Shown: piece after piece, positions 6,394 to 64,000 of the stretch
Position numbering within the stretch: position 1 is the first letter of the stretch
How the letters are laid out: each line of letters begins with the position of its first letter
Source: an uncultured Actinomycetes bacterium
Lineage (GTDB): Bacteria > Actinomycetota > CADDZG01 > JAHWKV01
Assembly: GCA_964501265.1 (NCBI GenBank)
Contig: CAZCSK010000001.1
Span: 86,314-150,313, forward strand
Reading direction: 5' to 3'
Length of the DNA: 64,000 nucleotides
Position numbers and translations under genes: made by a program
Notes under the pieces: generated by a model
The model's database searches: none
Seen by the model: only the letters and a program-made list of their open reading frames with translations
What the model was told of the DNA's origin: nothing

Positions 6394-6411
6394 GCGGTTC
6401 CACGTAATGAG

Positions 6412-6439: not shown

Positions 6440-6473
6440 TCTCTAACTACTAGGTACGTGATTTTGGCTTAAC

Positions 6474-11729: not shown

Positions 11730-11738
11730 GGTTCACGG

Positions 11739-12527: not shown

Positions 12528-12570
12528 GCTGACCCTTCCAATAGGCGCTGTTTCGGTCCGAGACGTCTCG

Positions 12571-13731: not shown

Positions 13732-13732
13732 A

Positions 13733-19093: not shown

Positions 19094-19133
19094 AATCCGA
19101 TAGCTTGACCGCGTAACGGAAGAAGATAGTGGA

Positions 19134-26059: not shown

Positions 26060-26105
26060 TCTCTCTTAGTCTCGGCAATCCGGCGGGTCGGTTTAAGGGG
26101 TGACC

Positions 26106-28810: not shown

Positions 28811-28833
28811 TTCGGAATCCTACTCATTGCAGG

Positions 28834-29556
28834 TCAACGCTTTATTCTTAAGCCCACGTACACGAGCGGGCGCAGTATCGACCACCACCCCACAATCGGC
28901 TTCATCTTGGTCTGGCCGAGATGCTTGGGCGGGTAGATCTTGGTGACCGGCGCCTCTGCGGTCCGGTAGCCCAACTTGATTACCTTCAAGTACAGGTAGG
29001 GCTCCAACTCATACTCGTCCAGCCAACTTTGCGCCAGGTCGATGCGAGCATCTTTAAAGACCGACATCCGGATCGCGCGGAATCCGTTTGTGGAATCGGT
29101 CACGCGGCGACGTGCAACAAGGGAGAAAAGTAGAGGGTGAAGACGCGTGGCCAACTTGCGGTAGGCAGGCATAGGACCCAAGTTCAGTTCTTCCTTTAGA
29201 AAACGTGACCCTTGCACGAAGTCTGCACGGTCGGATGCGATGGGTTCAAGAAGATCGGGGATCTCCTGCGGTTCGTCCTTGTTGTTCCCTGCCATGACCA
29301 CCGCAACGTCGTACCCCCTTTCGAGACCGTATTGATATCCGCGCCGCAACGCTGCGCCGACTCCGACGGTTTTGCCCAGTTCCAGAACGGTCGCACCTCC
29401 GGCTCTGGCAACTTCCGCTGAGCGGTCGGTTGATCCGTCGTCCACCACCAGCAGTTCGTCGACGACGTCGCGTGGAGTACGACGGACGACTTCTCCGATC
29501 TTTTCCTGCTCGTCGAGAACTGGAACGATTGCCAACACCCTCAGCCCTTTATACAC
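28834..29556 (-). CDS. GT2 glycosyltransferase, polyprenyl-phosphate sugar synthase-like (Dpm1-like)
   Basis: …RVLAIVPVLDEQEKIGEVV…LVVDDGSTDRS… Small GT2 (240 aa), GTG start at 29556. Divergent from a GT-C-like membrane gene. Confidence 0.75.
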   Translation of the reverse strand: MYKGLRVLAIVPVLDEQEKIGEVVRRTPRDVVDELLVVDDGSTDRSAEVARAGGATVLELGKTVGVGAALRRGYQYGLERGYDVAVVMAGNNKDEPQEIPDLLEPIASDRADFVQGSRFLKEELNLGPMPAYRKLATRLHPLLFSLVARRRVTDSTNGFRAIRMSVFKDARIDLAQSWLDEYELEPYLYLKVIKLGYRTAEAPVTKIYPPKHLGQTKMKPIVGWWSILRPLVYVGLRIKR

Positions 29557-29589
29557 AGCTGTTTCCAGGATCTCTTCCCGCAGTCCGGG

Positions 29590-29616
29590 CTCAACGGACG
29601 GTAGATTAGCGCCGTG
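29590..29616 (+). promoter_or_regulatory. Putative leaderless-type promoter: -10 TAGATT, 6-nt spacer, GTG start codon
   Basis: cggTAGATTagcgccGTG read directly. The same arrangement and flanking sequence recur at 35803-35829. Confidence 0.4.
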
Positions 29617-31239: not shown

Positions 31240-31267
31240 GCGAGCACTAGAGCAAGCGCGGATTCGC

Positions 31268-33316: not shown

Positions 33317-34785
33317 AGGATCGAAGTCCCCACCGGAAGCGACACGAGCGCTATGAGGACGCGCTCCAAACGCGTGAGAACAAGCGCGGCGCGGTCGAGA
33401 AACGGCGATGACTTATCGAGACCGAGCTTGCTGCGTGCATCACCGGGCCGCCGCCTGCTCGCCCATACGAATGGCGTGAGCCAGCTGAATATGTGGCTGA
33501 TAAACAGAACGCGGAACCCGCTCTCGGCAAGTTCTCGACGCAAGCTATTTTTGCTGTAACGGCGGTGATGACCGAGAAGTTCATCGGCCGAGCTCCAAAG
33601 CCATTGATGAGCAGGAACGGTGACTATCAAGCGACCGCCGGGCTCGAGGATGCGACGAGCTTCTCGCAAAACCTCGTCCGGATTTTCGACGTGCTCTATA
33701 ACGTCGAGAAGGCATGCATTTGAGATGAACCCATCGGGAATGGCGACGCGGTGGATGTCGCCGACAAATCCCGACAGCGCGTGCCTGTCGCGCGCACGCT
33801 TGGCAAGTTCGTGCGATCCCTCAACGATAAAAAGGTGCTCTGGGGGCCAACCAAGCATGGCGGTCACTCCACCCGCACCTGCGCCAAGGTCCACGAGCCA
33901 AGAAGATCCTTTGCCCCAACGTCTCAGAGCCCAGGAGACGAAGGCCGCCTTGCTTCGGAACCACCAGTGGCGAGCGTCGGCGTCCATCAGCGCCTCGGCA
34001 TTTGCTGCGTCAAAGATTCCATCCGCTTGGGGGATCGGTGGATTCTGCTTTCGCAACGCCCTCACCCTTAGCGCGATTCTTGGAATAGCCAAGACCATGT
34101 TCATACCGTCTCTAAAGACGCGCACACGGGATCTTTCGTCGTGACGCCAGGAGATGGCGATCTCTTCTACACCGATGTCGAGAGCGCGCGCGAGGGCGAC
34201 AATTTCTACATCCCATGCGAAGCCGACTTCGGTTGAGGCAGGGAGGATCTTTTTCCACGTCTGCGTTGAGGCAGCCTTGGCTCCACACTGAGTGTCGACG
34301 ATCCCGGGCGTCAACACGAGCTGCACGAGACGGTTGTAGGCGCGCCCAAGAAGTTCCCGCATTCGATTCTCATGGCGAAGCAATTCGGAGCCAGCGAGAT
34401 CCCTCGATCCGATGACCAACTCATGACCCCTTTGTGCTGCCTTCAGAATGACTTCGAGGTCGTGGAGCGGCGTGGCCAGGTCGACATCACAAAATCCGGC
34501 GAGATCGGTCCGCGCGCTCAACAACCCGGCAGTGATCGCGGCGCCTTTGCCGTAGTGCCCTGCGCGGATTAGACGGCCCGGTACATGAAGGTTGTTGAGC
34601 AGAAACTTCTCGACGCGCTGCGAGGTTTCATCGGCGCTGCCGTCGTCCACAAAAATTAGCTCACTACCCTCGGGCATCGAGACGATGAATGCGGCGAGTT
34701 CCTCTGCAGACTCTTCGAACCGCTCTTCTTCGTTAAATAGGGGAACCACTAGCGAAACGGTCTTCACAACACGCGAGCCAGTCAT
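33259..34785 (-). CDS. Bifunctional GT2 glycosyltransferase (N-terminal, Dpm1-like) / class I SAM methyltransferase (C-terminal) fusion
   Basis: N-terminus VSLVVPLFNEEERFEES…IFVDDGSADET…; C-terminus …LVDLGAGAGGVTAML… followed by …ILEPGGRLIVTVP…. Confidence 0.7.
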   Translation of the reverse strand: MTGSRVVKTVSLVVPLFNEEERFEESAEELAAFIVSMPEGSELIFVDDGSADETSQRVEKFLLNNLHVPGRLIRAGHYGKGAAITAGLLSARTDLAGFCDVDLATPLHDLEVILKAAQRGHELVIGSRDLAGSELLRHENRMRELLGRAYNRLVQLVLTPGIVDTQCGAKAASTQTWKKILPASTEVGFAWDVEIVALARALDIGVEEIAISWRHDERSRVRVFRDGMNMVLAIPRIALRVRALRKQNPPIPQADGIFDAANAEALMDADARHWWFRSKAAFVSWALRRWGKGSSWLVDLGAGAGGVTAMLGWPPEHLFIVEGSHELAKRARDRHALSGFVGDIHRVAIPDGFISNACLLDVIEHVENPDEVLREARRILEPGGRLIVTVPAHQWLWSSADELLGHHRRYSKNSLRRELAESGFRVLFISHIFSWLTPFVWASRRRPGDARSKLGLDKSSPFLDRAALVLTRLERVLIALVSLPVGTSILCVAVKDEGQRSAQGLKRS

Positions 34786-35723
34786 CGTGACCGTTTCCCC
34801 ATCTCACTTGGATATTTCCCGTTGTTGAACTGAGCAAATCTCTCGCGTAAGGGCTCCCTCAACAGGCGGTCCATCTTTGCCGTTAACGATTCGCGCACCA
34901 TCCGGCGGCGGCACACAAAGAACGAATGCATGACGGGGACCACTCCTTCGAGAGTGAGTCGATCGTCCAGTGCTAGCAGATAAGCAAGAGCCTTGTTCGC
35001 CTCTTCGTCCTGCCTGGCGAACTCTTCTATGTTGTTCCAAAGTATCTGATAGCCGATGCCGCCGCCCAGATCTTTGCGTTCGACAAAGTCGAAGTAGTGC
35101 CCGATGGCGCGAAACAGTTCAGCAGAATGAACTGCCTCAGTTGGCTCCCAGGCCAGCAGGTGGCGAAGAGCGGGGCGAAGCGGGTGAGATGTTCTGAAAC
35201 GCTCGGGCAGCCCGGCATTCGCCTCTTCCATAGCAGCCGCGTGGCGATCGGAGTACTGATTCCGGCTGGGCCCAACATACTCCCAGTTAACAAAGAGCCC
35301 CTCGGGGGTCAAGCAGGTTGAGAGGACGCGAGTGATCCTGTAGAGGTACTGAGCATGGTGCAACGCCGCCACGTTCACTATTAGGTCGTAACTCTTGCGT
35401 GGGGAGAATGACCGAAAGTCCGACTTGAAGTAAGAGATGGGGCGATCCTTCCTAAGCTCTTTCGCCTCCTCTAGATAGGAGGGAGACACATCGAAGGCAT
35501 CGATGTGTGCTGCGATCCCTCGATCGATTAGATCGCGATCCACCCATCCATTCCCGCAGCCGATTACTAGTGCCTGATCGAGTGGCGGTGTTGCGTAACG
35601 CACCTTGAAGTAGTCCATCCACCAGACGTTGGAGTCGCCCGTGGCCTTACGACATAGATGGGCCAACACGCCCGGCAACTCATTCCAATACTTGTCGACA
35701 TAGTGGCTGAGGGCGTCAGCCAT
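34782..35723 (-). CDS. Class I SAM-dependent methyltransferase
   Basis: …ALVIGCGNGWVDRDL…AFDVSPSYLEEA…; ATGA overlap with the upstream gene. Confidence 0.65.
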   Translation of the reverse strand: MADALSHYVDKYWNELPGVLAHLCRKATGDSNVWWMDYFKVRYATPPLDQALVIGCGNGWVDRDLIDRGIAAHIDAFDVSPSYLEEAKELRKDRPISYFKSDFRSFSPRKSYDLIVNVAALHHAQYLYRITRVLSTCLTPEGLFVNWEYVGPSRNQYSDRHAAAMEEANAGLPERFRTSHPLRPALRHLLAWEPTEAVHSAELFRAIGHYFDFVERKDLGGGIGYQILWNNIEEFARQDEEANKALAYLLALDDRLTLEGVVPVMHSFFVCRRRMVRESLTAKMDRLLREPLRERFAQFNNGKYPSEMGKRSR

Positions 35724-35800
35724 CGAGGATTGCCAGAACTGGAACGAATGCCACCACCTTCATCCCTTTGTACACGGCTGCTGTCTCTTCCCGTAGGCCG
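35716..35800 (-). pseudogene. Remnant 5' end of a Dpm1-like GT2 gene (≈20 codons) retained within a duplicated promoter cassette
   Basis: The reverse strand encodes …REETAAVYKGMKVVAFVPVLAILDG*, parallel to the N-terminus (LREEILETA)VYKGLRVLAIVPVLDEQ of the intact GT2 at 28834..29556. The surrounding ~115 nt are ~80-85% identical to 29521-29635. The rest of ORF-track entry 35716..36045 has no GT2 continuity. Confidence 0.4.
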
Positions 35801-35802
35801 GG

Positions 35803-35829
35803 CCCGGTGAGCGGTAGATTGAGACCGTG
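35803..35829 (+). promoter_or_regulatory. Second copy of the TAGATT-N6-GTG leaderless-type promoter
   Basis: gcggTAGATTgagaccGTG. The flanking ~60 nt are conserved with 29560-29616. Confidence 0.4.
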
Positions 35830-37590
35830 GAGACAGCCTCGAAGGACGAGATATCCGCCGCCTCTGTGGCAGACACCGGATCTCGCGAACGCGATAGCGC
35901 GGCGCGCGTCACGCTTGTACTCGTTCTCTTCCTCGCCGTAGCCGTTTACGCAACGTGGCCGCTTTCCCGGTACATGGGTAGCAGGGTACCCCAAAATCTT
36001 TTTGACTCTCTTGAAAACGCGTGGATCTTCGGGTGGAACGCGCACGCCTTTACAACCAACCCCCTCAAGATATTCAACGCGAATATCTTCTATCCAGAAC
36101 CGCTGACCCTAGCCTACGCGGAGAACCTGCTGGGCGTTTCCGTCTTCGTCGCGCCGATCTTCTGGCTGACTAAAAACGCGCTTCTGACCGCCAACATCGC
36201 CTACCTGCTCATGTACGCGGTGGCCGGGCTTGGCGTATACCTCCTTGTGAGGGAACTAGGCGGATCGCGCGTGGGTTCTTTTCTTGCAGGTTTCGCCTTT
36301 TCGGTGGCACCTTACCGGCTCATTCAAATAGCCCATCCACACGTGGTTGCAATTCACCTTGTCCCTTTCATCCTCCTGCTGTTGATCCGGCTTCGGCGTT
36401 CGCGTTCGAGATGGGTTCTAGTGGGGATAGCTCTTCTCGTCGCACTCCAGATGTGGTCTTCCATTACTGGCGGTTTGATCATGCTTATTGCAATCACCGG
36501 CTTCGGGATTTGGGAAGTCATCCGACTCCGGACGAGATCGCTACCGGTGGTTGGACGAGCTGCTGCCTCTGTCATCGTGGGCTTGGTTCTGGCGATCCCT
36601 GTGGCTCTTCCCTACATCGAGGTCCGCAAGCTTCACCCGGAGTTCCAGCACTCACCTGGCGAGATATTTACCTTCTCCGCGCTCCCTTCTTCCTACCTGT
36701 CTCCGGCCGAGGGACGGGGTCCGCTTGTCCGGTCATCGAACGATTGGCTAGACAAGCGATTCCGAGCCCGCGATGGGTTCTGGGAAAAAACGCTTTTCCC
36801 CGGTTACTGGCTGGGGGGTGCATTCCTGCTAACTCTTGCGCTCCTTGGCGTCGCGCTGGTGAGAAGGCGAAAGGCACCCTGGATAGAGCCGGCGGCGCTA
36901 TTCCTGTTCATCGCAACGATTGGGTTCGTGGCTAGCCTCGGCCCTCGCTACGGAGGGCCGAGCGGGATTAGGCTCCCATTTAGCCTGGTGTCAGATCTCA
37001 TTCCCGGGGGTTTCGTGCGCGTGCCGGCCAGATTCGGAACCGTCACTCTCCTCGGAATGTCGATTGCCGCGGGAGTAGTTCTCGGGGGGATCAGATCGCG
37101 TCCCGCCCGCGCGCTCATAGCAGTCTCAGGACTCTTCCTACTTCTCGAGGCCGCGCCATCCCCCTTTCCAATGATCGAGCCCCCTCCTCTTAGTAGGGCG
37201 CTCCAGCAGGTCCCCCGCTCCGGCGCAGTATTGGCGCTTCCCACAACCCAGGTGAACGAGAAGGGTAACGTGGTCGAGGGGAGCATCTTCCAGGATACGC
37301 GCAACCTCTACCTCTCCACCGGCAATTTCGCCCCGATGGTCAACGGATACGGGGCATTCCATCCTCAAACTTACTGGGAGGTCATGTCCGCCGTGCAGGA
37401 CTTCCCGAGCGCCGTCGGCATGCAGAGGTTGCAGGTGGTCGGTGTCAAGACAGTGGTGATTCAGACGGAGAGGATCAAAGGAACTCCCTGGAGTGAAGTG
37501 GTAGAGCGGCTGGAAGCATGGAAGGGAGTGCGCAGAATCGCTTCGGGCGAGCAGATCGTCGTCTTCGACATTTCGATGGCGAGTGACTAA
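35827..37590 (+). CDS. Polytopic membrane protein (putative GT-C-like glycosyltransferase/polymerase); N-terminal 7 aa and 5' region paralogous to gene 29614
   Basis: METASKDE…; ~12 TM helices and extracytoplasmic loops. Conserved upstream cassette. Confidence 0.55.
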   Translation: METASKDEISAASVADTGSRERDSAARVTLVLVLFLAVAVYATWPLSRYMGSRVPQNLFDSLENAWIFGWNAHAFTTNPLKIFNANIFYPEPLTLAYAENLLGVSVFVAPIFWLTKNALLTANIAYLLMYAVAGLGVYLLVRELGGSRVGSFLAGFAFSVAPYRLIQIAHPHVVAIHLVPFILLLLIRLRRSRSRWVLVGIALLVALQMWSSITGGLIMLIAITGFGIWEVIRLRTRSLPVVGRAAASVIVGLVLAIPVALPYIEVRKLHPEFQHSPGEIFTFSALPSSYLSPAEGRGPLVRSSNDWLDKRFRARDGFWEKTLFPGYWLGGAFLLTLALLGVALVRRRKAPWIEPAALFLFIATIGFVASLGPRYGGPSGIRLPFSLVSDLIPGGFVRVPARFGTVTLLGMSIAAGVVLGGIRSRPARALIAVSGLFLLLEAAPSPFPMIEPPPLSRALQQVPRSGAVLALPTTQVNEKGNVVEGSIFQDTRNLYLSTGNFAPMVNGYGAFHPQTYWEVMSAVQDFPSAVGMQRLQVVGVKTVVIQTERIKGTPWSEVVERLEAWKGVRRIASGEQIVVFDISMASD

Positions 37591-37807
37591 CATTAGATGC
37601 GGGAAGAATGGAGTGATGCGGCTGAGCGGAGAGGTGTGGAAGGTCCGACGGTTCGCTTCCGGCGACCAGATCCTATGTCGGTTCAGAATCGGTGATGCAG
37701 GGCCGCTCGAATGTGAAGATATTTGCGGACGGTACACTACCGATAACATGGTTTGCAGCTCGGCCGTTGAGGACTACCGCTAATGCAAGGGTGCAGTTAG
37801 GATCATC

Positions 37808-38815
37808 ATGCGGCTCGTTTCTCGCCGCCTGATTGTGTCAATCGCAATTCTTGCCACGAGTACTGCATTGCTGTCGGTCGGCGCTCTAGTGGTGCGGCGG
37901 GGAGTCGTCAGAGAAGTAGCGCCCCCGGGAGAGCCCGCAACCGATATGCCTCCCGCAGTCGCCCAATCCCCCACACCCGAGTTTTCTCCTACCCCGGAGA
38001 GGCCCTCACACCTACTCTCCCCCCCGCAGGAAATCCCCACGTCCGCCACGTCCCCTCAGGACTACATTTGGAGCTTTCCGAAGTTGACCCTGAGCATAAA
38101 TGTAGATCCTGTAGAAGGGCCCACCTATGTCGGCCCCCAAGCACGAGGTGGATCGGGGTGTGCAAGGCTGATGGCCCAGACAAAGGGATCTGACATCACC
38201 GTTGAAGGTATGCGCTACCCACGCGATGCCATTTGCACGGCGGATACTCCGTTGCGCTGGGAGCCGATTGCAGTCAATGGCGCTGCGATGCAAATCACCA
38301 TTCGCTACCAGGGAGAAACTGGCGTATACGAGTTGAACCGGATTGAAGGTCGAGTGCGCTTGCTGCTTGCGCAGGGAATGGATGTCAGTCCGCCTGTGTG
38401 CCCGGCCTGGTGGGAGGTTCCCTCGGATATCTTAGCCGTCTCCGTCTGGAACAACGACGACCGCGCGGCCGCGACTGTAGAACGCGTCTCTGATCGCATC
38501 AGCTACCGGCTTCATGAGGAAGGCGGGTCCAAGCATGATCCACCACCCGGAAGAGCGATCGTCAAACGAGCAGGTGCCGACGACAACGGCGGTTGCGACG
38601 GCGAAGCTTCTGTCCTACCTGCGGCGTGGCGGGACCGGGAGGGGTTGTCCCGCAGCTTTCGCGTCTACCGCACTTCATCCGACGACAGCACACTCCAGCG
38701 AATCGCCGCGGAGGAGTCCAGTCGGGAGAAGGATTACTGCATAAACGTGAACATGAGCAGGCGATCCGAGTACATGGCGTCTCCAAAAATCCGGACCGAA
38801 GGCTGCCAGTATTGA
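37808..38815 (+). CDS. Hypothetical membrane-anchored/secreted protein (N-terminal TM, Pro-rich linker, Cys-containing domain)
   Basis: 335 aa; hydrophobic segment LIVSIAILATSTALLSVGALVV, then a P/S/T-rich linker. No family recognised. Confidence 0.45.
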   Translation: MRLVSRRLIVSIAILATSTALLSVGALVVRRGVVREVAPPGEPATDMPPAVAQSPTPEFSPTPERPSHLLSPPQEIPTSATSPQDYIWSFPKLTLSINVDPVEGPTYVGPQARGGSGCARLMAQTKGSDITVEGMRYPRDAICTADTPLRWEPIAVNGAAMQITIRYQGETGVYELNRIEGRVRLLLAQGMDVSPPVCPAWWEVPSDILAVSVWNNDDRAAATVERVSDRISYRLHEEGGSKHDPPPGRAIVKRAGADDNGGCDGEASVLPAAWRDREGLSRSFRVYRTSSDDSTLQRIAAEESSREKDYCINVNMSRRSEYMASPKIRTEGCQY

Positions 38816-38930
38816 TACGAGCGTTCCAGCATTGTACCCCCCGGGGCCCCAGTGACTAACCTCAAATGGGGGTCTAGCGCACTCGCCGCGATGACGATAA
38901 CTATCCCGTAACCAATCGCATCGGACCGAT

Positions 38931-40757
38931 ATGTTCAATAAGGCGAAATCTGTATTACTCGTCCTCGCGTCGATAGCCCTTGCGGCATCGATGCAATCGC
39001 CCTCGTACGCCGCCAACGGCACGCTCGTCGGCAGGGTCACCAACGTAGACACCGGCGGCGCCGTTTCGGGTGCGAGCATTTGGGCCGGCGTCGGACTTCC
39101 GACCGGTACAAGCAACTCAAGCGGCAACTACTCAATCAGTCTCCCAGCCAACAGCGGGTACAACGTGTTAGCCGACAAATCAGGTTACGCAGGAGCCCAC
39201 CAGTACGGGGTATCGATAATCGCAGGCTCGACTACCATCCTCGACTTCAGAATCACGACTCGGCAAGGCATCATCACCGGAAGGGTGATCGACGGCTCGG
39301 GATCACCAGTGCCAAGTCACGTTATTGCCGATTCCACAGAAGGCAACGGCTTCGGTAACGCGAACACGGACTCCAATGGTTACTTCACGATCAACCGTCT
39401 TGCCCCCATGACCTATTACATCCACGCCTTTCCAAACAACACCGCGTACGCACAGGTTGCTCAGGCAGGTGTGATCGTTTCAAACGGACAGACGACGAAC
39501 ACCACGGTGATCATCAACGGTGGAAGTACCGGGAAGATCGCCGGTCGCGTGACCTTCCCTGACGGAAGTGGACCTTCCAACGCAAGCATCTACATCGACA
39601 GCGGCCAGACATCGTCGGCTTGGGCGGGCAACACCGACGCATCGGGGAACTACACGAGCAGCTTCCTGCCGGCGGCCAAGTACAACGTCCATGTGTCGGA
39701 TGTCCCAGGATGGGCCAACCAGGTGAGATACGACGTACCTGTCAATGGCGGTCAGACCGCAGTGCTCAACATTCCTCTGGCCAACAACACCGGAAGCATT
39801 AGGGGCTGGATCACCGACATCAACGGCACCCCCATAGTGGGAGCGCAGGTCGATGCCTTCTCGTCGTCTAACACAGGCCCCTGGGGTTGGCAGACGGTGT
39901 TCTCCGCAGCGGACGGGTGGTACGACCTCAACCGTCTTCTTCCGAGCGACCGCTACCAGATCTGGGTGCACACCGCAGGGCGGCCGTCGCTGCACGCCGA
40001 TTTCATCACCCTGGCGGCCGGTCAGATCCGCCAGCCTTATAACTTCACGTTCACGTTCCCTGGAAAGGCAATCGCCGCCAACCCCAGCGGCGGCTATTAC
40101 CTGCTGAGCGGAACGGGCGAAGTGTACGCATATGGTGGCGCGAACTATTATGGATCACCCACATTCTCGTGGAATATCGCCCGCTCGATCGCGGTCATGC
40201 CTGATGGTCTCGGATACATCGTGCTCGACGGATACGGTGGTGTGCACAGGTTCGGCAGCGCCGCGTCCGGACCGATCTCGTCGCTTGTGAGTCCCTATTT
40301 CGGATGGGACATCGCGCGAGGTTTGGCGATCACCCCGTCAGGCGCTGGATTCGCGGTGCTCGACGGATACGGCGGCTATCACGCCCGAGGCAACGCTCCC
40401 ACCCCCCCGGTCAAACCCCCTTACTGGGGCGGTTGGGACATCGCAAGAGCCATCGCATTCAGCCCGAGTGGCGGGGGCTACTACATCCTCGATGGATATG
40501 GAGGAGTCCACGCCCGAGGGGACGCCGTCAGCCGCCAAGCGCCCTACTTCGGATGGGATATCGCGCGAGGTTTGGCGATCACGCCAACCAATGGGGGTTT
40601 TGCGATCCTCGACGGCTTCGGAGGGGTTCACATCGCTGGTGACGCAACCGTCGCAGGGCCCGGCGGTTATCTTGGGGCGGATCGGTGGCGTGGCCTGATC
40701 ATCCAAGGTGGCAAGTACCGTTTAGTTAGAAACGACGGATACGCAGCCCAGTTCTAA
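38931..40757 (+). CDS. Secreted protein with ~4 carboxypeptidase-regulatory-like (CarbopepD_reg / Big-like) domains and C-terminal 'LDGxGGxHP…DIAR' repeats (~5x)
   Basis: Signal peptide MFNKAKSVLLVLASIALAAS…; repeated G(R/W)(V/I)TdxxGxPVxGAxVxA…TDxxGxYxI units. C-terminal repeats, e.g. GYIVLDGYGGVHRFGSAASGPISSLVSPYFGWDIARGLAITP. Confidence 0.7.
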   Translation: MFNKAKSVLLVLASIALAASMQSPSYAANGTLVGRVTNVDTGGAVSGASIWAGVGLPTGTSNSSGNYSISLPANSGYNVLADKSGYAGAHQYGVSIIAGSTTILDFRITTRQGIITGRVIDGSGSPVPSHVIADSTEGNGFGNANTDSNGYFTINRLAPMTYYIHAFPNNTAYAQVAQAGVIVSNGQTTNTTVIINGGSTGKIAGRVTFPDGSGPSNASIYIDSGQTSSAWAGNTDASGNYTSSFLPAAKYNVHVSDVPGWANQVRYDVPVNGGQTAVLNIPLANNTGSIRGWITDINGTPIVGAQVDAFSSSNTGPWGWQTVFSAADGWYDLNRLLPSDRYQIWVHTAGRPSLHADFITLAAGQIRQPYNFTFTFPGKAIAANPSGGYYLLSGTGEVYAYGGANYYGSPTFSWNIARSIAVMPDGLGYIVLDGYGGVHRFGSAASGPISSLVSPYFGWDIARGLAITPSGAGFAVLDGYGGYHARGNAPTPPVKPPYWGGWDIARAIAFSPSGGGYYILDGYGGVHARGDAVSRQAPYFGWDIARGLAITPTNGGFAILDGFGGVHIAGDATVAGPGGYLGADRWRGLIIQGGKYRLVRNDGYAAQF

Positions 40758-40769
40758 GGCACACAAGCT

Positions 40770-42170
40770 CTATGCAACTGGGCAGGGGCCCGGAACAAAA
40801 TTCTGGTTAGGGGGGGGAGACTTCGGCGGGGTTGGCCCCGCCGGGTTGGCGGGAATTGATACTGGTTTGGCCCCGTCTGCCCCCACCACCAGAGCGATTG
40901 GCGTTTCGACAATCACGGCGGGGGGCATCGCTTTCACTGGCGCGCCATAGCGGGCAGCCACCAGTCGAGCCTTTTCATCATGGCCCGGCCCGAAATAAAC
41001 AGTTGTCGCGGCGTGAGGGCTCGCATCACCCGTTGCAACGACCTGATAACCCGCCGCCTTCAGAGCGTCCGCCACCTTGCGCGCCTCGCCATCGACGCGC
41101 GTTCCGTTCAGAACACTGATCTCAACATCTTCAGGTTCCAGCGTACTCACGCCGGTTCTGCCGTAATCGGGCAAAGCCTTTCGCTCTTTGATCGCGGCAA
41201 ATAGCGCGTCGGACTGTCTTTTGTTCGCGACAACGAAAGAGACTCCACCTATTCGCGCACCGCTGGATGGAACCGCTCGAAGATCGAGTTTGCTTGAGTC
41301 GAAGCCTCGAAGTCGGAGCGCCAGTGTCTTCATGTCGGATATCGCAAGATCAGCGTCCGTCTTTACGTTCTTCGAGAAAAGGTTAACGAGTTTCACGACC
41401 TTGATCGGGTTTAGCACTGTTCCCTTCCTCGTCAATTTTTCCATCATGAGTTTCACGAACAACTGCTGGCGGGCTATGCGGCCAAAGTCGCTGTCGATCT
41501 TGCGCACCCTCACAAACGCAAGCGCCTGATCGCCTTTGAGGCGCACGCAACCCTTGGGAACGTTGAGTCCGGAGTCTTTTTCGTTGATGGGTCTTTCAAA
41601 GAAAACATCGATGCCTCCCAGGGCATCGACGATGCTTCGAAATCCGGTGAAATCGACTTCGACGTAGTGATTCATTTCGAGCCCCGTGAAGCTTTCCACT
41701 GTTTTGACGACGGATCCTGCCCCGCCCTGGTATGCCCCGTTAATTTTTCCGGTCTTGCCGCCGGGCAGCGCTACTCTTAAGTCCCTTGGGAAGTGCACGA
41801 GCACTACCTCATCTCGCTTTTCGTCGACATGGACAAGGATGATCGTGTCGGCCCTGCGGCCGGTCTTGCGATCGGTCCCCTCCGGATCAAACTTCTTGAG
41901 TTCTTCTGGTGAAAGCCCTTCTCTGGAGTCGGAACCAACGATTAACACATTGAGCGGAGCCTTCGGCGCCTGACTGCTGAGTTCGGCTATGTCCTGCCTC
42001 TCGCCGCCAAGACGGATTACAACGTAGGCGAGGACGGCCCCGGCTATCAGACTCAGGATCAACACGAACATGAATGTATAGAAGGCAAGCCTGGCGCCTC
42101 GGGACCACCGATGTCGGCCGCGCCGGCCTCTCTCCTTGATTATTTGGTCCCAACCCGGGCTCATGGACAT
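40770..42170 (-). CDS. LytR-CpsA-Psr (LCP) family glycopolymer-to-cell-wall phosphotransferase
   Basis: N-terminal TM anchor, LCP core …LNVLIVGSDSREG…RADTIILVHVD…VLVHFPRDL…MNHYVEVDFTGF…, a C-terminal LytR_C-like domain and a Pro-rich tail. Confidence 0.8.
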   Translation of the reverse strand: MSMSPGWDQIIKERGRRGRHRWSRGARLAFYTFMFVLILSLIAGAVLAYVVIRLGGERQDIAELSSQAPKAPLNVLIVGSDSREGLSPEELKKFDPEGTDRKTGRRADTIILVHVDEKRDEVVLVHFPRDLRVALPGGKTGKINGAYQGGAGSVVKTVESFTGLEMNHYVEVDFTGFRSIVDALGGIDVFFERPINEKDSGLNVPKGCVRLKGDQALAFVRVRKIDSDFGRIARQQLFVKLMMEKLTRKGTVLNPIKVVKLVNLFSKNVKTDADLAISDMKTLALRLRGFDSSKLDLRAVPSSGARIGGVSFVVANKRQSDALFAAIKERKALPDYGRTGVSTLEPEDVEISVLNGTRVDGEARKVADALKAAGYQVVATGDASPHAATTVYFGPGHDEKARLVAARYGAPVKAMPPAVIVETPIALVVGADGAKPVSIPANPAGPTPPKSPPPNQNFVPGPCPVA

Positions 42171-42186
42171 AAGAGAAGTATCACCT

Positions 42187-43296
42187 TCAATCTCCCGCGA
42201 CGTCGCTGTAGACCTGACGAGTTAGGCGAGCCGTTTCCGCCCATGTATATAAGGAAGCCTGGGTGACTCCCAATTTGATTGCCCGGTCTCGAGCGTCATC
42301 GTCAGTAAGGACTCGCCGAATCGCATCGGCGATTGAGTCGGTATCGAGCGGATCGCACCAAATGGGGGCCTCTCCAAGCACTTCGACCAATGAACCAACG
42401 CTTGACGCGACCACTGGGATCCCGGCCGCCATAGCCTCCAGCGGTGGAAGCCCAAAACCCTCATATAAAGGGGCAAACACGAAGGCCCGGCAGCCTGCCA
42501 TAAGAGCGCCTAACTCAGCGTCTGGAAGATACCCCGAGAAAACAACTCGCGGATGAACCTTCAGCCTCCGAGTAAGAGCGCGCAAGTCGATGCTCCCCCA
42601 TCCTGGGGGACCCGCAATGACGAGGCTCACTTCCTCTTTAACCAGGCTGAGCGCCGTGACTAGCCTGTCAAGATTTTTCCTCGGTTCCTGCGTTCCCGCG
42701 AATAAGACATACGGACCATTTATGCCCAACCGATCGAGAACGGATTTGTCTGGTTGTGTGTTATTAAAGGCCCCCCTTACGCCTTCGGGCGTTACGACAA
42801 CGCGGTCAGATGGGACTCCTAGTTCGGCGACGACCTGGTCGCCGACTGTCCTGGACGGAGCAATGACCATTGCGCACCTTCTCAAAAAGCGCGGGACGAG
42901 CCACCTATAGCGCTGTACGTGTGGCGTGCACATCTCCGGATACAACCAGAAGGTCATGTCGTGAATCGTGATAACGCTGCGACTGCCTTTCACGGGGGGC
43001 ACCCAGAAATTGGTGCCATGAAATACGTCGATGGGTCCGATAAGCCTCTCCGCGTTCGGGGCACCCAACACTTCCCAAGCGGTGACGGCATAGCGCGCGG
43101 GGACCCTAAAGTGCCGCAGGGCAATCCTTGGATCGATAGGAACTTTCGACCTGTCCTCACCCATAGTAAGAGCGAGCAAGCGAAACTCCACCTGGGAGTC
43201 GATGGCCATCAACCCTTCCAACAGGTTCAGAGTGTAGTGACCCACCCCTGTCAGGGGGTTCAGCAACGGAGATACGTCGTAACCCACTCTCATCAC
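42187..43296 (-). CDS. GT4 (GT-B) glycosyltransferase
   Basis: MMRVGYDVSPLLNPLTGVGHYTLNLL… and a C-terminal E-x7-E-like region (…FAPLYEGFGLPPLEAMAAGIPVV…). Confidence 0.75.
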   Translation of the reverse strand: MMRVGYDVSPLLNPLTGVGHYTLNLLEGLMAIDSQVEFRLLALTMGEDRSKVPIDPRIALRHFRVPARYAVTAWEVLGAPNAERLIGPIDVFHGTNFWVPPVKGSRSVITIHDMTFWLYPEMCTPHVQRYRWLVPRFLRRCAMVIAPSRTVGDQVVAELGVPSDRVVVTPEGVRGAFNNTQPDKSVLDRLGINGPYVLFAGTQEPRKNLDRLVTALSLVKEEVSLVIAGPPGWGSIDLRALTRRLKVHPRVVFSGYLPDAELGALMAGCRAFVFAPLYEGFGLPPLEAMAAGIPVVASSVGSLVEVLGEAPIWCDPLDTDSIADAIRRVLTDDDARDRAIKLGVTQASLYTWAETARLTRQVYSDVAGD

Positions 43297-43315
43297 CGAT
43301 ATCCTGCCTTAGATA

Positions 43316-44428
43316 ATGCGTATCGGCGTCAATTTGATGTTTCTTGTTCCCGGTGAAGTCGGCGGAAGCGAACCGCTTCTGACGCGGCTTGTTGAATCTA
43401 TCTCCGACCTGGATCACGAATTAGTCGTCTTTGCCACCTCCGGTTTCGCGTCTGCTTACCCCCAAATCGCCGAGAGGACGCGAATCGTGCAGGTCCCCTG
43501 GAGTTCTGGCGCGCAGGGTTTGCGCATAGCCGCCGAAAACTCCTGGCTTGCGTGGAAGGCTCGGAGCCTAAAGCTCGATGTGATTCACCACGGCGTGGGC
43601 ACGACCCCGTTTTTCAAGACCATTCCCACCGTTGTGACCATTCACGACATCCAATACCTGCATCATCCGGAGAATTTTGTGAAGCTCAAACGCAAATGGC
43701 TTGAAATTAATGTTCCCCATTCGGCCCGGCGGTGTGAAGTAATTTGCGTTCCCAGCAACTGGGTAAAGCTGGACATCGTCCGCGCATTCGGAATCTCTGT
43801 TGACAAGGTGGCGGTCGTTCCCTTTGGAAGCGAGGGCCTCTTTGGAGTCGACGGTGGAGCGGGGGTTTCGAGCGTTACTGCGAAGTATCGCCTCGAACGA
43901 CCCTTCTTCTTGTTCCCCGGCAGGGCGTACCCCCACAAGAGTCATCGATTTCTTCTAGAGGCTTACAAACCTCTTGCCCCGTTCGCAGACCTCGTCTTCA
44001 CGGGTCCGCCGTGGTTTCGCGATAGGGAGATCGCCACGGCTGCCAGGGGGCTCGGGCTTTCCGGCAAAGTTCGGCATCTGGGCATCGTCTCCAGGGAGGA
44101 CCTCGGAGGGCTCTATCGCGCCGCCACTGCGCTTGTTTATCCAACGCGCTTTGAAGGCTTCGGACTACCTCTACTCGAAGCGATGTCCGTAGGCTGCTGC
44201 GTGATTGCATCCAACGTGACTTCGATTCCCGAAGTTGTTGCCGAAAGCGGCATTCTTCTTGAGCCAGACGATCTTGAAGGTTGGACCGAGACCATGGACA
44301 AGGTGCTGGGCGATGAGGCCCTACGGGCCGAACTTTCCTTGAGGGGTCTAAGGCGGGCGGCAGATTTCACCTGGGAGAACGCGGCGCGTCTTCAGGTGGC
44401 GGCCTACCAGCAGGCCAAGCGACCATGA
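43316..44428 (+). CDS. GT4 (GT-B) glycosyltransferase
   Basis: …FEGFGLPLLEAMSVGCCVIASNV… GT4 C-terminal motif. Divergent from the previous GT4. Confidence 0.75.
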   Translation: MRIGVNLMFLVPGEVGGSEPLLTRLVESISDLDHELVVFATSGFASAYPQIAERTRIVQVPWSSGAQGLRIAAENSWLAWKARSLKLDVIHHGVGTTPFFKTIPTVVTIHDIQYLHHPENFVKLKRKWLEINVPHSARRCEVICVPSNWVKLDIVRAFGISVDKVAVVPFGSEGLFGVDGGAGVSSVTAKYRLERPFFLFPGRAYPHKSHRFLLEAYKPLAPFADLVFTGPPWFRDREIATAARGLGLSGKVRHLGIVSREDLGGLYRAATALVYPTRFEGFGLPLLEAMSVGCCVIASNVTSIPEVVAESGILLEPDDLEGWTETMDKVLGDEALRAELSLRGLRRAADFTWENAARLQVAAYQQAKRP

Positions 44429-45207
44429 CGGCGCCCGTCGCCGTAGTCTTTGTCGCCACCAACGAAAACAACTTTCTGTTCGAAGCGCTTGAGTCACTCT
44501 TTGCTTCCACGACCTTGCATCCCGAAGTGGTGGTCGTTGACAACTGTTCAGACGAATCTCCCGCGCCAAAAATCGGCTCCCAGTGGCCGAGCGTAAAAGT
44601 ACTCTCGCGGGAGACCCGCTCCGGGCTCCCCTCAAACTTGAATTTTGGTTTCCGCGCGACGACGGCACCCTATGTGATGTTGTGCAATTGCGACCTCATC
44701 TTCAAGGCTCAATCGATCGAGATTCTCGCCCGTTTCCTGGGAGATAACCCGGGGGCCGGAGTGGCAGCCCCCAAATTGCTAGATCCGCAGGGGAAAAGGC
44801 GTGCCTCGGCCAGGCGCTGGTACACGTTTAGTTCGTTGATCGCCCTGCAGGGACCCTGGAGAAAGTTGTTCAAGAACAGCGTGCTCGTTCGACGGAGCCT
44901 GTACGAAGATTGGGACTACACTTCCGCCCGCCTGGTCGATTGGACGCCATTCTCAGCCACGATGGTGAGGAGGACCGCCTTCGAACAGGTCGGCCTAATG
45001 GACGAACGCTTTTGGGTCTACTTCGACGACGTCGACATCTGCCTTCGCATGCACAATGCAAGCTGGGAAGTGTGGTGCGTGCCGGACGCGGAAATAATTC
45101 ACCTGGAGCAACGATCGAGCAGCCGGCCCTTTTCACGCGCCTGGCGATGGCACCTTGCGTCGATGATCAAGTTCTGGCTGAAACATCGGAGCCTCACGCC
45201 TCGTTAG
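44425..45207 (+). CDS. GT2 family glycosyltransferase
   Basis: …VVVVDNCSDES… and …DDVDICLR… (DxD) motifs. ATGA overlap with the upstream GT4. Confidence 0.75.
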   Translation: MTAPVAVVFVATNENNFLFEALESLFASTTLHPEVVVVDNCSDESPAPKIGSQWPSVKVLSRETRSGLPSNLNFGFRATTAPYVMLCNCDLIFKAQSIEILARFLGDNPGAGVAAPKLLDPQGKRRASARRWYTFSSLIALQGPWRKLFKNSVLVRRSLYEDWDYTSARLVDWTPFSATMVRRTAFEQVGLMDERFWVYFDDVDICLRMHNASWEVWCVPDAEIIHLEQRSSSRPFSRAWRWHLASMIKFWLKHRSLTPR

Positions 45208-59644: not shown

Positions 59645-60742
59645 ATGATCGATCCACGGGACCTGCCGGAACTTCCGGCCCTCATGATCGCCGGCCCGGG
59701 CGAACTGCGCGATGACGATCTGAAAGTTCTCGGCCATCAGGTTCTTGCGCACTATGGTGAAACCTGGACCGCACTTCACGACGAGACCATCGATGCAATC
59801 TCGCACCTGCTGGGTGCAGGCGGTGGCACTTATCTCGTTCCGGGAAGCGGAACCACCGGGGTCGAAATGGGTATCCGAAATGTCTTTGGTCCGGGGCAAA
59901 AAGTTGTCATACCTAACTCAGGCTTCTTTGGCTTTCGTTTAGTTGAGATTGCCAGAGCTGTTGGGCTCGAGGTTCGCGAGGTGCCGGTCGAAGTCGGCGA
60001 GCCCGTCGATGTAAACCTCATCGCCGAGGCGGCAGTTGGCGCCGACGGCGTGATATCGGTCCACGTCGACACATCCACCGGTGTTCGTCACCCTATCGGC
60101 GAGATCGCAAAAGCTGCGCACACAGCCGGAGGACTCTTCATGGTCGACGCGATTGCATCTGCTGGAGGTGAGGTCATCGATGTTGAAGCTATGGGCATCG
60201 ACCTGCTCGTGACCGGCTCGCAAAAGGGCCTTGAAGCGCCGCCCGGGCTGGCCGTTGTATGCCTCAGCAACGCCGGCAAAGAGGCGATCGCGAATCGGAC
60301 CTTTTCTACCTTGAGTTGGTATCTAGACATTGCAGTGTGGGACAGGTTCAGAACGGACTGGGGGGCCTGGCATCCTCATCCCGTAACCATGCCCACCAAC
60401 GTCGTCCTCGCGCTCGCGTCGAGCGTGAAACGCATCACCGAGTTCGGCGGAGGCGATTGGATCGAGGCCCGCGCTGCCTTGGCAAAGCGTTGCCGCGAGG
60501 GGCTAGCGGAATTGGGCCTTTCTCCGGTGCCAGTGCCGGGCGCTGAAGCCAATCTGATCGTCGTAGCCTGGGCGGATGATCCCGACAAGATTATTCAAGC
60601 CCTAAAACGGGAAGGAATCATGATCGGCGGAGGCCTCGGTCCGACCGCCGGCAAGTCGATCAGGATCGGGCTGATGGGGAAGAACGCGACCGAAGAGATG
60701 GCCGACAAGGCGCTGGGGATCATCGCCGACTCATTCAAATGA
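59645..60742 (+). CDS. Class V aminotransferase (serine-glyoxylate/alanine-glyoxylate/SPT-like)
   Basis: …LMIAGPGELRDDDL…GSGTTGVEMGIRN…VDAIASAGG…GSQKGLEAPPGLA… PLP-Lys motif. Confidence 0.8.
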   Translation: MIDPRDLPELPALMIAGPGELRDDDLKVLGHQVLAHYGETWTALHDETIDAISHLLGAGGGTYLVPGSGTTGVEMGIRNVFGPGQKVVIPNSGFFGFRLVEIARAVGLEVREVPVEVGEPVDVNLIAEAAVGADGVISVHVDTSTGVRHPIGEIAKAAHTAGGLFMVDAIASAGGEVIDVEAMGIDLLVTGSQKGLEAPPGLAVVCLSNAGKEAIANRTFSTLSWYLDIAVWDRFRTDWGAWHPHPVTMPTNVVLALASSVKRITEFGGGDWIEARAALAKRCREGLAELGLSPVPVPGAEANLIVVAWADDPDKIIQALKREGIMIGGGLGPTAGKSIRIGLMGKNATEEMADKALGIIADSFK

Positions 60743-62724
60743 CCGAGCGGGACCGGCCGTGGTTGATGCGGACTTACGGGGGACATACTTCGGCTAAAGC
60801 AAGCAACGCTCTTTACCACACCAACTTGGCCAACGGCCAGACCGGACTCTCGGTCGCCTTCGATCTCCCAACACAAACCGGTTACGACGCGGACCACATC
60901 ATGGCCCGAGGCGAAGTCGGCAAAGTCGGCGTTCCGATCAAGCACATCGGCGACATGCGCACGCTTTTCGAGGGAATACCTCTGGACACATCCAATACTT
61001 CAATGACCATTAATGCGACGGCGATGTGGCTGCTTGCGCTTTACGTTGCGGTGGCCGACGAGCAAGGTGCGGACCGCGCCACTCTTGCGGGAACTACTCA
61101 GAACGACATCTTGAAGGAATACCTGGCGCGCGGCACCTACATCTTCCCTCCGGGGCCCTCGATGCGACTCACTGTCGACATGGTCACGTGGACTCTTCGA
61201 AACACGCCTAAGTGGAATCCGATCAACATTTGCTCGTATCACTTGCAGGAGGCCGCCGCGACTCCCGTGCAGGAACTGGCCTACACAATGGCCAACGCCA
61301 TCGCAGTGCTCGATGCGGTGAAAGACACCGGGCGGGTATCCGACGAAGAGTTAGGGCGCCTCGTGGGGCGCATTTCTTTCTTCTGTAACGCCGGCATACG
61401 GATAGTCGAAGAGATCTGCAAGATGCGAGCCTTCACCAGGATGTGGGATCAAATCACGTTGGATCGTTACGCGGTGACCGATCCGAAGTTCCGCAGGTTC
61501 CGTTATGGAGTGCAAGTCAATTCGCTAGGACTAACGGCGTTGCAACCCGAGAACAACGTCTACCGCATTCTCCTTGAGATGTTGGCAGTTGTGGCATCGA
61601 AGGACGCCAGGGCACGTTCGGTCCAATTGCCGGCATGGAACGAGGCCTTGGGGCTTCCGAGGCCCTGGGACCAGCAGTGGTCGCTGCGAGCGCAACAGAT
61701 TCTGGCAGTCGAGACAGATCTGTTGGAGTACGAAGATATCTTCGAGGGATCCGCGGTGATCGAGAAGAAAACCGCGGACTTGACGCAGGAGGCGACCGAA
61801 GAACTCAACCGCGTGCTCGAGATGGGAGGCTCGATCGAGGCCATCGGTTACATGAAAGAACAGATGGTCGCGTCGCACGCGGCCCGACAGAGGGCAATAG
61901 AGTCAGGTGAATTGACGGTTGTTGGAATGAATGATTACCTTTCAACCGAGCCGTCGCCGCTCGAAGGGCGGACAAGCGGATCAATCCTGACCGTTGAGGC
62001 TGAAGCCGAGACGGACGAGGTTGAGGCCCTTAACCAGTGGCGGGAAACGCGAGACGGACCCCTCGTCGAGCGAGCACTCGCGGATCTCAAGAAAGCAGCT
62101 TCAACCGATGAGCAATTGATGGAGTTTTCGATCGCCGCCGCCGTCGCTGGCGTCACGACCGGCGAATGGGCGGGGGCCCTTCGCGAAGTCTTCGGTGAGT
62201 ACCGGCCCCCCACCGGCGTGACCGATCGGTCGGCCGCCGGCGCGGCAACATCGGAGGCGATCACAATAGTTCGAAAGAAAGTAAGGGAAACCGCCGCATC
62301 TATAGGTGCGAAGAGATTGCGTCTGCTGGTCGCCAAACCCGGACTGGATGGTCACTCAAACGCGGCCGAGCAAGTCGCCGTGAGGGCGCGCGATGTTGGG
62401 TTCGAGGTGATCTACCAGGGAATAAGGCTGACTCCCGAGCAGATCGCGCAGGCGGCGGTGGACGAAGGTGTGCATGCGATCGGAATCTCGATACTGTCGG
62501 GTGCCCACAACTTCTTGGTAAAAGACTTGCTCGAACGTCTGCGCGACTTGGGGCTGGACCCGTCTAAGGTTCCGTTGATAGTTGGCGGTGTGATTCCGCC
62601 CGAAGACGAAAAACGGTTGCTCGACTCGGGCGTTGTGCGGGTCTACACGCCGCGAAACTACGACCTGACTCAGGCCATGGGCGAAATCGCGGATCTCATT
62701 GCGACAAGCGCGGGGCAGGCTTAG
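60739..62724 (+). CDS. ecm: Methylmalonyl-CoA-mutase-family acyl-CoA mutase with fused C-terminal B12-binding domain; given ccr context probably ethylmalonyl-CoA mutase
   Basis: …WLMRTYGGHTSAKASNALYHTNLANGQTGLSVAFDLPTQTGYD… catalytic domain, plus a C-terminal …LLVAKPGLDGHSNAAEQVAVRARDVGFEV…GVHAIGISILSGAH… B12-binding Rossmann domain with the DxHxxG motif. Confidence 0.8.
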   Translation: MTERDRPWLMRTYGGHTSAKASNALYHTNLANGQTGLSVAFDLPTQTGYDADHIMARGEVGKVGVPIKHIGDMRTLFEGIPLDTSNTSMTINATAMWLLALYVAVADEQGADRATLAGTTQNDILKEYLARGTYIFPPGPSMRLTVDMVTWTLRNTPKWNPINICSYHLQEAAATPVQELAYTMANAIAVLDAVKDTGRVSDEELGRLVGRISFFCNAGIRIVEEICKMRAFTRMWDQITLDRYAVTDPKFRRFRYGVQVNSLGLTALQPENNVYRILLEMLAVVASKDARARSVQLPAWNEALGLPRPWDQQWSLRAQQILAVETDLLEYEDIFEGSAVIEKKTADLTQEATEELNRVLEMGGSIEAIGYMKEQMVASHAARQRAIESGELTVVGMNDYLSTEPSPLEGRTSGSILTVEAEAETDEVEALNQWRETRDGPLVERALADLKKAASTDEQLMEFSIAAAVAGVTTGEWAGALREVFGEYRPPTGVTDRSAAGAATSEAITIVRKKVRETAASIGAKRLRLLVAKPGLDGHSNAAEQVAVRARDVGFEVIYQGIRLTPEQIAQAAVDEGVHAIGISILSGAHNFLVKDLLERLRDLGLDPSKVPLIVGGVIPPEDEKRLLDSGVVRVYTPRNYDLTQAMGEIADLIATSAGQA

Positions 62725-63773
62725 GGCGCGAAACGCGGGTAATAGCTTTCAGGACCGATAGCCTTTACATCGTCTGCATAGTTCCCGTCGTAGAAATCTT
62801 CAAGGCCCTCGGCGGCGTCGACGAGGCTCCACGCCTGCCGTTTGTAGGTCCAGTTGTTCGGCTGTGCGCGATGAGCTTCGCGGAAGTGAAACATCGCATC
62901 AGTCGGATGGCCCGCGCGATGAAGATGCTGTCCCATTTCAAAGTGGGCCGCCGCCGCACCTACCTCAAGGGGACGAGGATGAGACCGGCGGATCACCTCA
63001 TCGGGTTCAAGGGCAAAAACGGAGTCAGGTCCCTTGCCGACCCAATCTCTAAGAGCGTTCACGTAGGTGTCCCCGTCGATAATCAGCCGCCTCGCGAGAT
63101 TGATTCGTTCTTTTCGCTCAGCCGAAGCATCCTCGGGGATGGGGAAGTTGCTGTTGTCAACGCTGTGCGTCCACGCCGGTTCGGCCGGCCTGACGAGCAC
63201 TCCCTGCTCATCGATCCAGACACCGTTAGGAACGTTGACTATTCCGAGTAGCTCGTCCACGACGTGGGCCTCGTCGATCAATGACGGATGCTCCGGGTTG
63301 GCAGCCTCGATGTATTCCCGGCAGGCTTCAGACCCTCCGGTGTCCAATGCGACAGTGACTATCTCAAGCCCTTTTGGGTTCAACTCGAGGCGAAGTTTCT
63401 GCCACCCGGGCAGGTCATTGCGGCACCCTCACCAAGACGCCCACGCTACGAGCAGAACTTTTTGCCCAAGCAAGGAACGAAGGTCGAACGATCCGCCTTC
63501 GAGATCGGGCAAGACCAGCGGCGGCGCGGCGGCAGAGGTGAGGGCCCTGCCCCCGGACTGAGGGCCGAGGCTCCAGAGCCCGTGTTTCTCATCATGAACA
63601 ACAGGCATGGCAAGTTGGGATGCAAGCAGAGAGATGTCGACGGCCCCATCGACGCGAGTCTCGGAAGCAAGCGGGATGCACACTTCCCCTTTGCATGCGC
63701 CCCGGTCATTCAGTTCCCAACCCGTCAGTCGTTCGAACTCCGCCACTGCGACCCATGCCGATTCAAAGATCAC
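62721..63773 (-). CDS. Thioredoxin-fold TlpA/ResA-like thiol:disulfide oxidoreductase interrupted by a single in-frame TGA at the redox-active Cys position (selenoprotein candidate, or pseudogene)
   Basis: ORF 63429..63773 ends …LPDLEGGSFDLRSLLGQKVLLVAWASW-TGA. It continues in the same frame as GCRNDLPGWQKLRLE + ORF 62721..63383 (…EIVTVALDTGG…IDEQGVLV…). The 45 nt between them are in frame with no other stop. Compare the redoxin consensus …VLVNFWASWCxPCRxE(x)P…. Confidence 0.5.
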
Positions 63774-64000
63774 TTAAGGAGTTACAACAACTCTCGTGCC
63801 GACGGGCGCCCAATTCCAAAGTATCTCGGCGTTAGCACGCAATTGACGCACGCAGCCGGCACTCCGAAATGTTCCGAGTTGGGACTCGGTTTGAATCGGG
63901 CCACCGCGGCCAACTGGAATCGAGTGAAAACCAATTGCCAGACGGCGGCCTCGGGCGAAGCGGACCATAAATTCCATCCTCACGCGGCCCCCGCGTGCGC
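63774..64000 (-). CDS. L,D-transpeptidase (YkuD domain), partial; N-terminus beyond window end
   Basis: C-terminal …IGFHSIPVGRGGPIQTESQLGTFRSAGCVRQLRANAEILWNWAPVGTRVVVTP matches the YkuD catalytic H…S-x-GC(I/V)R…G-T-x-V motif. Its stop abuts the start of the redoxin-like gene. Confidence 0.6.
   Translation of the reverse strand, partial: ARGGRVRMEFMVRFARGRRLAIGFHSIPVGRGGPIQTESQLGTFRSAGCVRQLRANAEILWNWAPVGTRVVVTP

Follow-up and report, generated by a model that had tools for sequence, protein, structure and literature searches.

An in-frame TGA predicted to encode selenocysteine in a ResA-like redox gene of an uncultured Actinomycetes bacterium

In the window analyzed here, a 64,000-nucleotide stretch of contig CAZCSK010000001.1 (assembly GCA_964501265.1, positions 86,314 to 150,313) from an uncultured Actinomycetes bacterium, a redoxin gene on the minus strand is interrupted by a single TGA codon at the position of the catalytic nucleophile, which raises the question of whether this codon ends a protein, marks a damaged gene, or is translated. 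A reading made from the sequence alone had proposed a candidate selenoprotein with selenocysteine (Sec) as the nucleophile of a TlpA/ResA-like fold, and the comparisons reported here support that proposal. We place a probability of about 0.9 on the locus being an intact gene for a selenoprotein of a known family, a three-domain redox protein of 350 residues in which UGA codon 115 is recoded to selenocysteine. This reading is supported because the TGA is conserved across phyla, cysteine orthologs exist, a hairpin downstream of the codon covaries, and purifying selection acts past the TGA; judged from these comparisons, selenocysteine is almost certainly the residue that the in-frame TGA specifies. 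Earlier work has already documented the recoding, the motif, and the architecture, and the gene is an ordinary member of a catalogued family. The features on which the argument rests are listed below (HMM, hidden Markov model; SECIS, selenocysteine insertion sequence).

62721..63773, minus strand: complete gene for a predicted selenoprotein, member of NF041054 (WAxxUGC_long), from translation, HMM match, and 49 of 51 family-invariant residues
63429..63431, minus strand: in-frame UGA, codon 115, predicted selenocysteine, aligned to the first Cys of the ResA/TlpA-type CxxC, from TGA in 19 of 21 loci and the 3kcm alignment
63423..63425, minus strand: TGC, Cys117 of the U-G-C motif, presumed resolving residue, invariant in all homologs
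63399..63413, minus strand: putative bacterial SECIS hairpin, kept in 19 of 19 Sec forms, recovered by RNAalifold, with two covarying pairs, -7.5 kcal/mol

The reading frame and its family

Translation of the minus strand from 63773 to 62721 yields one 350-codon frame, opening with a GTG start at 63773 and closing with a TAA stop at 62723..62721, whose single internal stop is the TGA at 63431..63429, as the sequence-only reading had described. The codon lies in the context ...GQKVLLVAWASW-TGA-GGG-TGC-CGC..., read as W-A-S-W-U-G-C-R, with the peptide GQKVLLVAWASW before the stop and GCRNDLPGWQKLRLE after it; the family active-site motif W-A-x-x-U-G-C is present as W-A-S-W-TGA-G-C over codons 111-117. 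Automatic gene callers break the gene into products of 114 and 220 amino acids, a consequence of the UGA whose importance lies chiefly in the quality of annotation.

Read through the TGA, the protein is an end-to-end match to the NCBIfam equivalog NF041054, "ResA-like WAxxUGC motif-containing protein" (residues 2-349 aligned to positions 2-353 of the 354 in the profile); it scores 516.8 bits where 300 is the cutoff (E 3.2e-155). The NCBIfam models for ResA, TlpA, StoA, and DsbE all score far under their cutoffs (ResA 49.6 vs 170; TlpA 42.1 vs 230; DsbE 26.5 vs 123). A Pfam domain, AhpC-TSA/Redoxin, extends over residues 82-194 and spans the TGA; the match to PF00578 (AhpC/TSA), at 42.7 bits versus a cutoff of 26, is no proof of peroxidase function, since PF00578 also takes in TlpA-like proteins. 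Assignment as a peroxiredoxin was rejected, the PxxxT/SxxC peroxidatic motif being absent around the site LLVAWASW-U-GCRNDLP when read directly. The protein belongs to the TlpA/ResA subtype of the thioredoxin fold, and a profile alignment to PDB 3kcm (WATWCPPCR) aligns codon 115 to the first Cys of WCPPC and opens a gap of one residue ahead of the second, in agreement with the earlier placement of the TGA at the first Cys of WCxxC. The window copy keeps 49 of the 51 family-invariant residues, including C27, C32, and NWTYKR, and 34 of the 35 that follow codon 115, at an identity of at most about 59-63% to any other sequence retrieved.

The U-G-C spacing had been called atypical, and either a truly unusual active site or the trace of a 3-nt indel or pseudogenization had been suggested. 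Because the protein matches NF041054, which carries the motif in its very name, this spacing is a family-defining feature and not an indel. The Sec-Gly-Cys active site is unusual, and its spacing is already described in the literature; a 3-nt deletion from CxxC was rejected, as U-G-C or C-G-C is invariant throughout the family.

Table 2 of the 2008 Global Ocean Sampling selenoproteome (PMC2398784) includes a "Prx-like (UGC-containing)" family (pfam00578, motif UGC) with 46 Sec sequences and 855 Cys homologs, and places it among families described earlier. Dataset S1 of that study holds reads such as ...LLLTWASWUGCRLDVPVWQ..., with an N-terminal KPEGLCxxxxCV segment and a C-terminal ...NYYAPLE tail, as in the family found in the window. 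A 2026 review also names the UGC-containing family, whereas it goes unmentioned in the text of BSepDB, and members are annotated by NCBI under the family name, for example in Frankia sp. QA3 and Acidimicrobiia metagenome-assembled genomes (MAGs). The full-length HMM, W-A-x-x-U-G-C, the N-terminal Cys-x4-Cys, the hairpin-encoding LPxWQ, and the C-terminal NWTYKRQAW...YYP tail all agree with NF041054; nothing of substance differs from other members, and the SECIS stem of the window gene is a minimal 5-bp version.

Conservation of the codon and of the downstream hairpin

The orthologs were aligned, as the sequence-only reading had advised, in order to see which codon each carries at this site. 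A scan of one genome per GTDB species gave 22 homologous loci, 21 of them with the family active-site motif, and in 19 of these 21 the identical codon is TGA, followed by GGN-TGY. The genomes with the TGA form span about five phyla: Acidimicrobiia and other Actinomycetota, Dormibacterota, Terriglobales, Bryobacteraceae, another Acidobacteriota, and a Kiritimatiellia. The same TGA in so many homologous loci of other genomes is beyond chance. The remaining two, both gammaproteobacterial (a Spongiibacteraceae MAG and Halioxenophilus aromaticivorans), carry TGC or TGT there. The best 120 full-length homologs in the protein database all have a Cys-Gly-Cys site (W-A-S-W-C-G-C in 119, W-A-P-Y-C-G-C in one), and the position of Cys117 is invariant in all homologs. 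In six pairs of Sec-form homologs the ratio of nonsynonymous to synonymous substitution rates (dN/dS) 3' of the TGA is 0.05-0.38, equal to or below that of the upstream part, which points to purifying selection on the sequence after the TGA.

A 5-bp stem with a 5-nt loop about 15 nt past the UGA had been put forward as a bacterial SECIS, and this proposal holds up well. In the window the hairpin occupies 63413..63399, with CUGCC at 63413..63409, the loop CGGGU at 63408..63404, and GGCAG at 63403..63399; it starts 15 nt past the UGA and is encoded by Leu-Pro-Gly-Trp-Gln codons. Its values agree with the published bacterial SECIS consensus (PMC13188914) as follows (MFE, minimum free energy).

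Apical loop: 3-9 nt required; 5 nt in the window hairpin
Upper stem: 4-16 bp required; 5 bp in the window hairpin
G in the first two loop positions: required; G at position 2, then G, in the window hairpin
UGA to loop: 16-37 nt required; 20 nt in the window hairpin
MFE: -7.5 kcal/mol or lower required; -7.5 kcal/mol in the window hairpin, borderline

The pattern (C)CUGCC-N5-GGCAG(G) occurs 16-31 nt past the UGA in all 19 aligned Sec-form sequences, and RNAalifold run on these 19 returned exactly the CUGCC-N5-GGCAG hairpin and nothing more. Four of the six stem pairs are invariant; the two outer pairs covary with pairing kept, from C-G to U-A, G-C, and U-G. Overall, 98% of cells are paired, a share that drops to 25-74% once the 3' partner is moved by one to three columns. 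With 500 shuffles, the observed values were reached by 0-2 shuffles on four of five measures, and the number of pairs changed on both sides was reached by 23 of 500. The Leu codon of the stem is NUG in 19 of 19 sequences, a form that makes up 31-76% of Leu codons in these genes (about 1e-6 when the background frequencies are multiplied, with the sequences taken as independent), and CAA replaces CAG only in those stems where UUG replaces CUG. At the protein level, L-P-x-W-Q is found in 19 of 19 Sec forms versus 28 of 120 Cys forms (Fisher 6e-11, with no correction for phylogeny), and the Cys forms often carry LSGWR or GPIWS in this segment. A peptide that is fixed in Sec forms and loose in Cys forms indicates that the RNA structure limits the protein sequence solely in those forms that have a UGA to decode.

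Alternative readings of the TGA

A number of observations weigh against the selenoprotein reading. None of selA, selB, selD, and tRNA-Sec (selC) was found in the 64 kb of the window or in a further 8.7 kb past its end, a search that combined ARAGORN (no tRNA), Pfam on all large open reading frames (ORFs) of 1..29,500, and precomputed annotation for 28.9-72.7 kb; what these annotations showed were genes for cell-envelope polysaccharides, giant Calx-beta proteins, and the metabolism of acyl-CoA, and sel genes were absent. The UGC family is graded "predicted with high confidence" and not experimentally verified, and no experimental characterization of it was found in the literature. ORF clustering over the 22 loci yielded no conserved neighbor, hence no substrate or partner is indicated. 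As for the RNA, no hairpin of the set is weaker than that of the window (5 bp, -7.5 kcal/mol, exactly at the threshold), most homologs having 6-8 bp and about -10 kcal/mol. Its GGCAG 3' arm can instead pair with GUGCC of the Gly-Cys-Arg codons just past the UGA, a pairing that is the MFE structure of the 63-nt segment in the window copy and is not kept in homologs such as locus L013. Because conserved amino acids dictate much of the stem, few positions are able to covary; an Rfam search of 62000..64000 at E up to 1 returned no match, Rfam being without a model for this hairpin. Folding the region downstream of the UGA, another check that had been advised, gave a divided result: the 63-nt fold is no stabler than shuffled sequence (z = +1.28), and only the small hairpin, conserved and covarying, is supported, through the comparison between genomes.

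Of the competing explanations, the one that survives best, and that we nevertheless consider very improbable, is that the UGA is recoded by the same SECIS/SelB-like route but that cysteine or another standard amino acid is inserted, through a Cys-accepting tRNASec-like tRNA or near-cognate read-through, giving a CGC product and not UGC. Natural Sec-to-Cys recoding systems have been reported, the Cys forms of this family are common and evidently functional, and no Sec machinery was found in the window. Such recoding systems are rare, however, and the TGA forms occur in lineages such as Actinobacteria and Acidobacteria, phyla with reported selenoproteins. Two independent groups catalogue the family as a selenoprotein, and keeping a costly UGA and its hairpin merely to insert cysteine would bring no obvious benefit.

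Slightly less credible still is the possibility that two products are made, in which the TGA terminates a functional N-terminal protein of 114 residues and the downstream part is translated separately or not at all. Sec insertion is always in competition with termination, the N-terminal domain is modeled as a compact, confidently folded unit, and databases hold many fragments of about 114-117 amino acids. These fragments stop exactly at W-x-x-[WY], though, which marks them as gene-calling truncations at the UGA; the NF041054 family is widespread, and its N-terminal fragments that break off at this very codon form at least 38 distinct clusters at 50% identity. A chain of 114 residues would also be cut short partway through the thioredoxin fold, immediately ahead of helix 1, and the Cys orthologs are single chains of 344-362 residues. 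Nor does the downstream part have an ATG or Shine-Dalgarno sequence from which to be made, as had been stated at the outset: the first in-frame ATG 3' of the TGA is far off, at codon 281, and the only in-frame start available to such a product is a TTG at 63383, the first start codon of any kind, within the thioredoxin fold.

The weakest explanation, that a TGC or TGT cysteine codon was mutated or miscalled to TGA in a pseudogene or through a sequencing or assembly error, would take a single-base change and has in its favor the division of the gene by gene callers and the frameshifts of one homolog, but together with an alternative genetic code it is effectively excluded by the cross-phylum conservation of the TGA in independent loci, the low dN/dS past it, the invariant residues kept by a window copy with no further lesion, and the normal use of TGA as a stop, and a separately assembled Logan contig (SRR6868923) is identical across 13,262 bases, TGA included, with the same reads possibly behind both assemblies. 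The earlier suggestion of pseudogenization falls with it. In the window, 27 of the 43 genes end at TGA in the ordinary way, therefore the codon is not globally reassigned, and that candidate was rejected. The homolog in question, locus L020 (3001..4100, in the Acidimicrobiia MAG MFD02360.bin.1.92), keeps the TGA and the hairpin and needs two frame shifts to be read; these are either long-read indel errors or signs of a decaying copy.

Domains, proposed chemistry, and surrounding genes

The selenoprotein reading gives a long architecture, with its domains seen in AF2 (AlphaFold2) models, of an N-terminal Cys-x4-Cys domain, a thioredoxin fold, and a helical, TPR-like C-terminal domain. The remaining features of the gene and the gene upstream of it are as follows.

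63534..63773, minus strand: N-terminal domain of about 80 amino acids with an invariant G-A-C-x4-C-V/I-P motif, without known relatives
63695..63693 and 63680..63678, minus strand: Cys27 and Cys32, in the N-terminal domain
63174..63533, minus strand: thioredoxin-fold (TlpA/ResA/DsbE-like) catalytic domain, codons about 81-200
62724..63173, minus strand: C-terminal helical domain with an invariant NWTYKRQAW motif
62853..62954, minus strand: TPR-like repeat, codons 274-307, from a TPR_2 match below the Pfam cutoff and consensus-TPR matches at profile positions 277-312
63774..64000, minus strand: 3' end of the upstream YkuD L,D-transpeptidase gene (full gene 63774..64547, past the window end), from Pfam YkuD PF03734, E 6e-11

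The invariant stretch of the C-terminal domain comprises N305-R310 and W313 (P0001 numbering). The protein has no signal peptide or transmembrane segment (acidic N-terminus; maximum Kyte-Doolittle value over 19 residues 1.36) and is therefore probably cytoplasmic, unlike ResA and TlpA, a placement that comes from sequence features.

In the proposed mechanism, the hairpin CUGCC-CGGGU-GGCAG, 15 nt past the UGA, would act as a bacterial SECIS and recruit SelB-GTP-Sec-tRNASec to the ribosome paused at the UGA; lying within the coding sequence, it would at the same time fix the peptide L-P-x-W-Q. Sec115 would then stand at the N-terminus of helix 1 of the thioredoxin fold, in the place of the nucleophilic Cys of ResA and TlpA, and presumably attack a disulfide or another oxidized substrate. 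Cys117 could resolve the adduct to give a Sec-Gly-Cys selenenylsulfide, a ring of the CXC type and not of the CXXC type. The N-terminal Cys-x4-Cys and the TPR-like domain may have roles in electron relay and client binding. At the level of the family, a Sec-Gly-Cys center of CXC type in a thioredoxin fold and an orphan N-terminal Cys-x4-Cys domain make worthwhile targets for enzymology.

Comparison with known systems sets the family apart in spacing and architecture. ResA, TlpA, DsbE (CcmG), and StoA have CxxC, whereas the family in the window has U-G-C, one residue shorter; they are extracytoplasmic, with a membrane anchor or signal peptide, neither of which is present here, and they lack the two extra domains. 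The UxxC selenoproteins share Sec in place of the N-terminal nucleophilic Cys, a SECIS in the coding region, and abundant Cys orthologs, but differ in spacing (UxC in this family) and in domain architecture. The CGC of MauE (bioRxiv 10.64898/2026.03.05.709764) and CGC peptides or mimics of protein disulfide isomerase present a redox-active dithiol/disulfide pair of the same Cys-Gly-Cys type; as MauE is a membrane protein with no thioredoxin fold and no Sec, its likeness to this family is in chemistry only.

The upstream YkuD L,D-transpeptidase has 257 residues, and its TAA stop is followed without a gap by the GTG with which the redoxin gene begins. The sequence-only reading had taken the two as probably co-transcribed; the neighboring gene is real and adjoins as described, but this adjacency is unique to the window genome and absent from the 21 other loci, those of Dormibacterota carrying an AlkA-like gene upstream instead, and a functional link between the redoxin and the L,D-transpeptidase is unsupported. 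On the other side, a convergent methylmalonyl-CoA-mutase-like gene (60739..62724, plus strand; MM_CoA_mutase and B12-binding domain, 661 amino acids) shares 4 nt with the 3' end of the selenoprotein gene (62721..62724; TAG on the plus strand versus TAA on the minus strand), which leaves no intergenic room for a terminator.

Elsewhere in the window, 2317..10739 on the minus strand holds two very large adjoining ORFs of 1358 and 1421 amino acids, one combining penicillin amidase with cadherin-like/Big_9 and Calx-beta domains and the other carrying four Calx-beta repeats, with its N-terminal ~800 residues otherwise unassigned. A long cell-envelope polysaccharide cluster extends over 10842..45207, with many GT2 and GT4 glycosyltransferases, a Wzm/Wzt ABC-2 exporter, and a DegT aminotransferase, in addition to LCP (LytR_cpsA_psr), SpoIID-like, YfhO-like, and Amidase_2 proteins and several large ORFs without a Pfam match, such as 31268..33316 and 35827..37590. 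Judged from the best homologs and from the envelope genes (the LCP-family LytR_cpsA_psr gene and YkuD), the uncultured source is probably an Actinomycetota of the Acidimicrobiia type. Past the window end, at 17309..21986 of locus L023 (about window positions 68047..72724), lie two adjoining large genes with guanylate/adenylate cyclase, AAA/STAND ATPase, and TPR domains, and ORFs similar to these are also neighbors of the homolog in L001 and L002, both Dormibacterota loci, forming a cluster of three loci.

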